A stretch of DNA of 64,000 nucleotides from assembly GCA_000993275.1 (NCBI GenBank), contig LBVV01000009.1, forward strand, positions 2,897 through 66,896, given 5' to 3'. This document shows positions 45,531-46,921 of this stretch, one piece after another (position 1 is the stretch's first letter; the number at the start of each line of letters is the position of its first letter). The notes under the pieces are model-generated. The model did no database searches. It was not told where the DNA came from and was given only the letters and a program-made list of their open reading frames with translations. The position numbers and the translations under genes are program-made. The stretch comes from a candidate division CPR2 bacterium GW2011_GWC2_39_10 (lineage in GTDB: Bacteria > Patescibacteriota > CPR2).

Positions 45531-46921
45531 ATGGCTGAGATAGCTGAGATAGAAGAACAACAGCAAATAATTCGCAAAATTGGCCGTGTGGTGGGTATTC
45601 ACGGGGCGGTGGTTGACGTTCATTTCCCCGGTGAACTCCCGGAAATCCATAATGCCATGATTATAAAAGAAGGAAATGAAGAACTTGTCTTAGAGGTTTT
45701 TGAGCATCAGCCCAATCGAACTGTTAGGGCGCTTGCCATGGGCCACTCTACCGGGCTTAAAGTAGGCTTAGAAGTTGAGGATACGGGAGGCGTCCTTCTT
45801 GTTCCGGTTGGTCCGGAACTCTTGGGCAGAATGGTCAATATTTTCGGAAAACCCTTAGATGACGGGGAAGAGGTAAAAACCGAAACAAAGCATCCAATTT
45901 ATGTTCCAAGCCCCGATTTTACCGGCGTTAAAAACACTAATGAAATAATTGAGACCGGCATTAAAGCTTTAGACTTTTTAACCCCCTTTATTAAAGGCGG
46001 CAAAACAGGCTTCTTTGGCGGTGCGGGTGTTGGTAAAACACAGCTGGTTACCGAAATTATCCACAATACTACCATGAAACATGGTAACAACTCGGTTTTT
46101 TGCGGTGTTGGAGAACGTACCAGGGAAGGTAATGAGCTTTATTTGTCTCTAAGAGATACTAATGTTTTGCCTAATGTGTCTATAGTGCTGGGTCAGATGA
46201 ATGAATCCCCTGCAATAAGGTTTAGAACTCCCTTAACGGCTATTACTATAGCTGAGTACCTAAGAGACTGGAAGAAAAACGATATCCTTCTTTTTATAGA
46301 CAATATTTTTCGATTTATCCAGGCCGGAATGCAGAAACCGGTTATCAGTCAACCTTGGCTTCAGAAATTGGCGAGGTTCAAGAAAGAATTGTCTCCACCG
46401 ATTCCGGTTCTATTACTTCCGTTCAGGCAATATACGTTCCTGCAGATGACTTTTCCGACCCCGCCATCCAGGCTATCTTCTCCCATCTGGATTCTGTTGT
46501 GGTTCTTTCGCGTAAAATTGCTCAGCAAAAAATTTATCCGGCCATGGACGCATTGGCTTCCAGTTCTACTATAGACGAAGAGGTGTTGGGAGAAAAACAT
46601 TATAAAACATTAAGGTCTTGCTTAAAGCTGTTGGAGCGCTACAGGTCGCTTCAAAACATTATTGCAATTCTAGGCGAGGATGAGCTTTCGGAAGCAGAAA
46701 AAGTGACCGTTTCAAGGTCGAAAAAAGTTTTAAAATTTTTAACCCAACCATTTTTTACGGCAGAAAAATTTACCAATGTGCCCGGCGTTTATGTTACTAA
46801 GGACGAGACGGTAGAAGGTATAGATAGGATACTTAAAGGGCAATATGACGAGTATACCGATGAACCTTTTTATATGGCGGGCAATATAGAAAGCGTAGAG
46901 GACAAATGGCGGAAGAAGTAG
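45531..46921 (+). pseudogene. atpD: F1 ATP synthase subunit beta, with its frame broken near 46320-46330
   Basis: Frame 0 matches beta through ..[11 protein letters not shown] (Walker A GGAGVGKT). Frame 2 resumes with [33 protein letters not shown]. The ~7 conserved residues between them (SEVSALL in typical beta subunits) are missing, so the deletion is not a multiple of 3. Confidence 0.8.

Follow-up and report, generated by a model that had tools for sequence, protein, structure and literature searches.

Does the broken atpD gene at positions 45531..46921 (+ strand) of the window, by which we mean the whole 64-kb stretch of DNA that was analysed, record a loss of the F1 beta subunit in a CPR2 bacterium, or was the break made when the sequence was assembled? 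The gene lies between those of the gamma (atpG) and epsilon (atpC) subunits, in an F-type ATP synthase operon at 41.4-47.3 kb that encodes c-like, b-like, delta (OSCP), alpha (584 aa), gamma (292 aa), beta and epsilon (118 aa) subunits, with OSCP, alpha, gamma and epsilon recognised around it by Pfam. The 5' and 3' halves of atpD are read in different frames, and this frame break is genuine in the sequence as given, as a preliminary description of the locus had stated.

The upstream open reading frame (ORF; 45531..46574, 347 aa) resembles a beta subunit only as far as ...FIQAGM, at codon 267, whose last base is 46331. This 5' part of the gene (codons 1-267, 45531..46331, + strand, ending in ...FRFIQAGM) contains the N-terminal beta-barrel, the Walker A motif GGAGVGKT and the Walker B motif LLFIDN. 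DNA alignment to near-identical contigs (99.9-100 %) places a blunt junction at 46331..46332 (+ strand), where 31 nt (GAAGTGTCTACGGTGCTTGGGCGAATACCGT) are absent. The gap lies directly 3' of the ATG of Met267 and takes from the 473-aa F1 beta subunit the codons E268-P277 (EVSTVLGRIP) together with the T of the S278 codon TCA, the remainder of which, CA, is kept at 46332-46333. The 3' part of the gene (46332..46921, + strand) consists of this CA followed by E279-K473 and the stop; from there, the frame of 46334 again gives beta sequence as far as the stop at 46921. The last 80 aa of the upstream ORF (QKPVISQPW...PVLL, 46332..46574, + strand) are read out of frame and are a meaningless product of the gap. 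Thus, the 31-nt gap accounts for the frame break, for the 347-aa ORF with its nonsense tail and for the 188-aa downstream ORF. The placement of the junction is unique, because a shift by one base in either direction spoils the alignment; indeed, the last lost base is not the same as the base 5' of the gap, nor is the first lost base the same as the one 3' of it. Neither direct repeats nor microhomology flank the gap at the junction. The same single 31-nt gap is seen in DNA alignments against more distant relatives, namely the closest species, with 84 % nucleotide identity (L001), and the next, with 74 % (L002-L007).

The preliminary description had read the lesion as an internal multi-base loss rather than a homopolymer slip, and as a loss that is not a multiple of 3. 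Both points hold, as no homopolymer stands at the break in the given sequence and 31 nt equals 1 mod 3; the string CAGGCCGGAAT also stands at 46320-46330, as claimed. The description had gone on to propose a slippage deletion of about 22 nt between GCCGG repeats, with about 7 residues lost between QAG and GRN, and this version, though right about the length class and the kind of lesion, is ruled out by the DNA alignments and in our view has next to no chance of being correct. Alignment to related genomes sizes the gap at exactly 31 nt, so that ten codons and one base of the following Ser codon, i.e., ten and a third codons, are gone; the lower estimate arose because an overlap and one residue had been ignored. 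The GRN anchor (GGC CGG AAT) is a chance out-of-frame reading of the QAGM codons, and the true GR, that of GRIPS, lies inside the lost piece. The break does not fall at GGCCGG either, since the junction 46331|46332 is 4 nt downstream of it; moreover, GGCCGG occurs a single time in the intact sequence, upstream of the gap, and no GCCGG or other direct repeat flanks the gap.

The identity of the gene is clear from its homologues. When the two halves are joined, they match beta subunits in the PDB (E = 4e-145) with one internal gap after QAG, and the nearest database homologues are 471-473 aa long. In particular, P0001 shares 91 % amino acid identity in a global alignment (89 % by BLASTP) and P0002, named by NCBI 'F0F1 ATP synthase subunit beta [candidate division CPR2 bacterium]', shares 84 % (82 % by BLASTP). 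Homologues read FIQAG-MEVSTVLGRIPS-ETGYQ across the site, a segment that is invariant or nearly so in nine relatives, and both Walker A and Walker B, which the window retains in the 5' part, are invariant in the homologue alignment. No uninterrupted ORF of about 460-480 aa carrying the conserved segment after QAG (MEVSTVLGRIPSETGYQ) is found in the window; such an ORF is present in the sister contigs L008, L009 and L010, where 473 aa are called, and the intact copy at L009:6764-8185 matches PF02874, PF00006 and PF22919, i.e., the barrel, nucleotide-binding and C-terminal domains. The ratio dN/dS for atpD is 0.057 against L001 and 0.039 against L002; the gene is under strong purifying selection, although dN/dS says nothing about a very recent event. 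The window gene thus shares with the F1Fo beta subunits of CPR2 and other Patescibacteria (P0001, P0002) the domain order, the Walker motifs, the operon context delta-alpha-gamma-beta-epsilon and a near-identical sequence on both sides of the gap. It differs from them in that the segment present in every homologue and sister assembly is reduced by 31 nt and the frame is shifted.

The sister contigs were retrieved through identical copies of the gamma and epsilon proteins encoded in the window. Their groundwater metagenome samples and their assemblers differ, and they include ENA ANAN16 scaffolds, MEGAHIT-style k141/k127 contigs, JGI assemblies and Logan; runs named in their records are SRR1658465, SRR1658466, SRR1658468 and SRR29904083. 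We take BioProject PRJNA268031, whose record names say only 'groundwater metagenome', to be the same aquifer series, and the window presumably belongs to the same aquifer metagenome series as the genome of Brown et al. The identical 31 nt are present in all eight of the other assemblies that span the site (L008, L009, L010, L011, L014, L016, L023 and L024), and the deletion junction is found in none of them. A ninth assembly calls the 473-aa gene, and the full 473-aa beta subunit is called in four contigs, one of which derives from a later separate run (SRR29904083). The flanks are all but identical: downstream (46332-51258) there are 0 mismatches in 4927 nt against L008, L009, L010 and L023 (100 %), and upstream (41393-46331) there are 3-6 mismatches in 4939 nt against L008, L009 and L010 (99.9 %). 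L008 even carries the window's alleles at the cluster of single-nucleotide polymorphisms (SNPs) at 46169-46232, and yet it has the 31 nt.

Searches at the protein level gave the same picture. No protein joining QAGM to the out-of-frame tail was found among the 5.8 billion clusters searched, and the tail itself matched nothing but one normal beta fragment and two frameshifted, unrelated beta fragments of other organisms. None of the broken ORFs of the window (347, 342, 380, 188 and 125 aa) was on record when looked up by exact product. A scan of genome_contigs and metagenome_contigs for the junction pattern also gave no match; these exact-pattern scans carry no weight, because a control pattern from an undisputed flank, present in the JGI contig L023, was equally unmatched. 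As a side observation, the atpD gene of one sister scaffold (L011:4464-5907, ERZ28564302 scaffold_40785) also appears 'split', into 121 and 347 aa; there, the split is due to two runs of N (15 N in place of 21 nt and 10 N in place of 18 nt), with no mutation.

The atpD gap is not the only lesion of this kind in the window. Comparison with sister contigs across the window, covering 1-32.5 kb and 34.7-64 kb, revealed six further blunt private deletions (25, 39, 44, 28, 31 and 47 nt), as well as a single patch of 91 foreign nt, in the 64 kb. Relative to the sister assemblies, 25 nt are missing at 1818..1819, comprising the 3' inverted-repeat arm of an intergenic repeat (repeat A); 39 nt at 6304..6305, comprising the 3' arm of the other repeat A copy and 16 nt more; 44 nt at 25380..25392 (~25386), inside another intergenic repeat (repeat B); and 28 nt at 31547..31548, inside the second copy of repeat B. 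On the + strand, the 91-nt patch (40744..40834) is of foreign composition, with a GC content of 53 % vs 38 % for the window, and stands in a Big_1-domain ORF in place of 130 nt (L008) or 144 nt (L009). Also on the + strand, 31 nt are missing at 41392..41393, in the ORF with the c-like subunit at its end, and a 10-N run in L008 starts exactly there. The last of these lesions (51258..51259, + strand) removes 47 nt, which are present in L008, L009, L010, L021 and L022, from a 470-aa fn3/Big_5 ORF that is thereby cut to 380 aa. The 665-aa Big_1/c-subunit ORF is broken by its private defects into three pieces (39845..40873, 40797..41405 and 41366..41758).

These defects stand in a sequence that is otherwise nearly indistinguishable from its sisters, as the window has 0 mismatches over 12,742 nt against L027. 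When the other assemblies were compared pairwise as a control, 12-21 kb contained 0 gap openings and 3-14 SNPs; natural variation in the population is therefore of the SNP type. The gap in atpD is thus private to the window, it is accompanied by seven further private defects, and the sister assemblies are consistent with one another. The eight lost segments, with lengths of 25-47 nt and a GC content of 0.35-0.64, share neither a motif nor a hairpin nor a fixed length. In the four intergenic gaps, it is the 3' arm of inverted repeats that is lost, whereas the three coding gaps show nothing comparable. No consistent microhomology was found across the defect junctions, which argues against replication slippage.

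Several of the defects also fall at places that are difficult to assemble in independent data, marked by a contig end, an N-gap, a repeat or strain variation. Four of them sit in repeats A and B. Repeat A is intergenic and about 122 nt long, with 14-nt terminal inverted repeats (GTAACTGCTCACAA ... TTGTGAGCAGTTAC); its two window copies (~1700..1818 and ~6185..6304) are without the 3' arm in the window only, and intact counterparts stand at L037:2405-2550 and 6935-7057. Repeat B is likewise intergenic, about 135 nt long and present in three copies that are 84-93 % alike (25250..25386, 31417..31547 and 51498..51652), with a 10-bp inverted repeat (CTCAAAAAGT...ACTTTTTGAG); Rfam contains no match to it. 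Contigs of the other assemblies often end in repeat B, and L034-L036 begin or end there. Seven contig ends from other assemblies fall in atpD (45950, 46155, 46174, 46316, 46369, 46397 and 46415), and four of them (46316, 46369, 46397 and 46415) are within 15-85 nt of the junction. The true sequence concealed by N-gaps in sister scaffolds amounts to 10-54 nt, comparable in size to the window gaps. At 51258, no mark of a contig end, N-gap, repeat or strain variation was found.

A strain-variable patch lies just upstream of the atpD junction (46169..46232, + strand), with SNPs at 46169, 46175, 46211, 46229 and 46232, and a further SNP patch lies at 45863-46142. The strain-specific SNP patches of atpD (45863..46232 and 46570..46636) occur in differing combinations, forming mosaic haplotypes that suggest co-occurring strains and perhaps recombination between them. 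Two other sources of a broken assembly graph were considered for atpD. Collapse of an intragenomic repeat was rejected, as no exact repeat of at least 12 nt links the intact atpD region to the rest of the window, unlike at the intergenic gaps. Confusion with a co-occurring CPR2 species of the L002 type was also set aside, the longest shared exact run being about 17 nt in an alignment by eye; judged from the alignments, the strain-level SNP patches are the more likely cause of a graph break. An Rfam scan returned only four tRNAs and nothing near atpD; these tRNAs form a cluster (RF00005) at 32106..33604, within 32.5-34.7 kb, the only stretch without cover by a fetched sister contig.

The presence of the 31 nt in eight assemblies and the seven other private defects of the window favour an artefact over a real deletion; the atpD gap is very probably a collapsed scaffold gap or a local mis-join. 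The source organism, a CPR2 relative from groundwater metagenomes, would carry an ordinary intact 473-aa F1 beta gene, and the gap would be set in a region of differences between co-occurring strains, at which assembly graphs break. There, two contig ends were most likely abutted, or a small scaffold gap collapsed, without the intervening bases. The step itself would have been contig abutment, removal of an N-gap or an automated 're-assembly' of errors, three possibilities that are alike in the comparisons made here. For the genome first reported by Brown et al., local scaffolding mistakes were fixed or exchanged for N with ra2.py, a script of these authors (PMC5220378). The lesions of the window resemble the errors of short-read assemblies in the aquifer series in being small, local, confined to one assembly and placed at repeats, strain-variable stretches or contig ends. 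They differ from the N-gaps of 10-54 nt seen in the sister scaffolds in that the window defect contains no N and its flanks are bluntly joined.

Several features of the operon are unusual in their own right. An ORF of 664-665 aa with Big_1/Invasin_D3 domains contains the c-like subunit as its C-terminal ~65 aa; the c-like domain lies at ~41560..41758 of the window, and intact ORFs are found at L009:994-2991 and L002:3856-5850. This c-like/Big_1 fusion ORF occurs in two species that share only 74 % nucleotide identity in atpD, and in the NCBI annotation only a 121-aa c subunit is called. A HMMER alignment places a Leu opposite the ion-binding Glu of Bacillus PS3 subunit c, and a second comparison, with reference c subunits, also gives Leu for Glu; helix 2 of the c-like subunit has no acidic residue. 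No gene for the a subunit (atpB) was found beside the operon, either in the window (37263..47262) or in the operon neighbourhoods of L002 and L009. The genes that lie upstream of the c-like ORF encode surface proteins (WxL-interacting, dockerin and Big-domain). The alpha subunit (42836..44590) is long (584 aa), being extended at the N terminus by about 60 Lys-rich aa and at the C terminus by a tail rich in Lys and Glu, and these extensions are conserved in length in related species, the alpha subunit of L002 having 583 aa. The unusual features of the operon do not alter the verdict on the frame break in atpD.

The main alternative is a real 31-nt deletion, carried by a clonal sub-lineage or by a minority genotype that the assembler followed, with atpD then being a pseudogene of very recent origin. 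The sequence shows the lesion unambiguously and the population is demonstrably multi-strain in atpD, and an operon with no adjacent a-subunit gene and a c-like subunit without the carboxylate might belong to an F1Fo that is dispensable. In addition, essential genes are mostly spared by the other private gaps: of the eight defects, four are intergenic and three lie in surface-protein ORFs, a distribution that selection would also yield, and at atpD there is no intragenomic repeat of at least 12 nt to explain a collapse. Nevertheless, we consider a real deletion unlikely, as none of the 8 assemblies and no protein of the collection contains its junction, and as about eight deletions of 25-47 nt would be needed alongside essentially 0 substitutions relative to L008 and L027, in a population whose other members vary by SNPs only. 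Flanking direct repeats are absent, ten invariant residues are lost from a gene with a dN/dS of 0.04-0.06, and the companion defects include a patch of foreign composition and a gap at exactly the base where a sister scaffold has an N-gap. Like the short-frameshift pseudogenes of host-restricted or recently reduced genomes, the window copy shows a frame-disrupting loss in a conserved gene. Unlike bacterial deletion pseudogenes, its lesion is unshared by independent samples, has no flanking repeats and stands among many similar blunt gaps without substitutions; neither the same lesion in independent data from the lineage, nor a slippage signature, nor relaxed selection was found.

A bolder form of the same idea, that the eight blunt lesions are end-joining-type scars left by a burst of double-strand breaks, with one CPR2 sub-lineage surviving without F1 beta, seems very unlikely; if it were true, the unusual F1Fo of the group would be dispensable. 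Finally, the two overlapping ORFs jointly cover most of the beta subunit, as might be expected of programmed recoding (a ribosomal frameshift or bypass) or of a naturally split beta. Recoding could not restore the ten missing invariant residues of the nucleotide-binding domain, and there is no conserved slippery site or structure, because the junction occurs nowhere else; as for a split beta, all relatives and sister assemblies have one uninterrupted ORF. Since the missing residues are irrecoverable and no relative shares the arrangement, both forms are excluded, and the probability that we leave to them is practically nil.

All in all, from the sequence comparisons, the break in atpD is most probably no real biological feature and no biological gene loss, and the finding of an artefact has in itself no wider biological importance. 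Other 'pseudogenes' and split ORFs of the same record become suspect, for example the 380-aa fn3 ORF and the Big_1/c-subunit ORF in three pieces. Taken at face value, the break would lead to a CPR2-type bacterium being annotated as having no working ATP synthase and would affect metabolic reconstructions of a poorly known lineage, an error that the reading as an assembly artefact averts.
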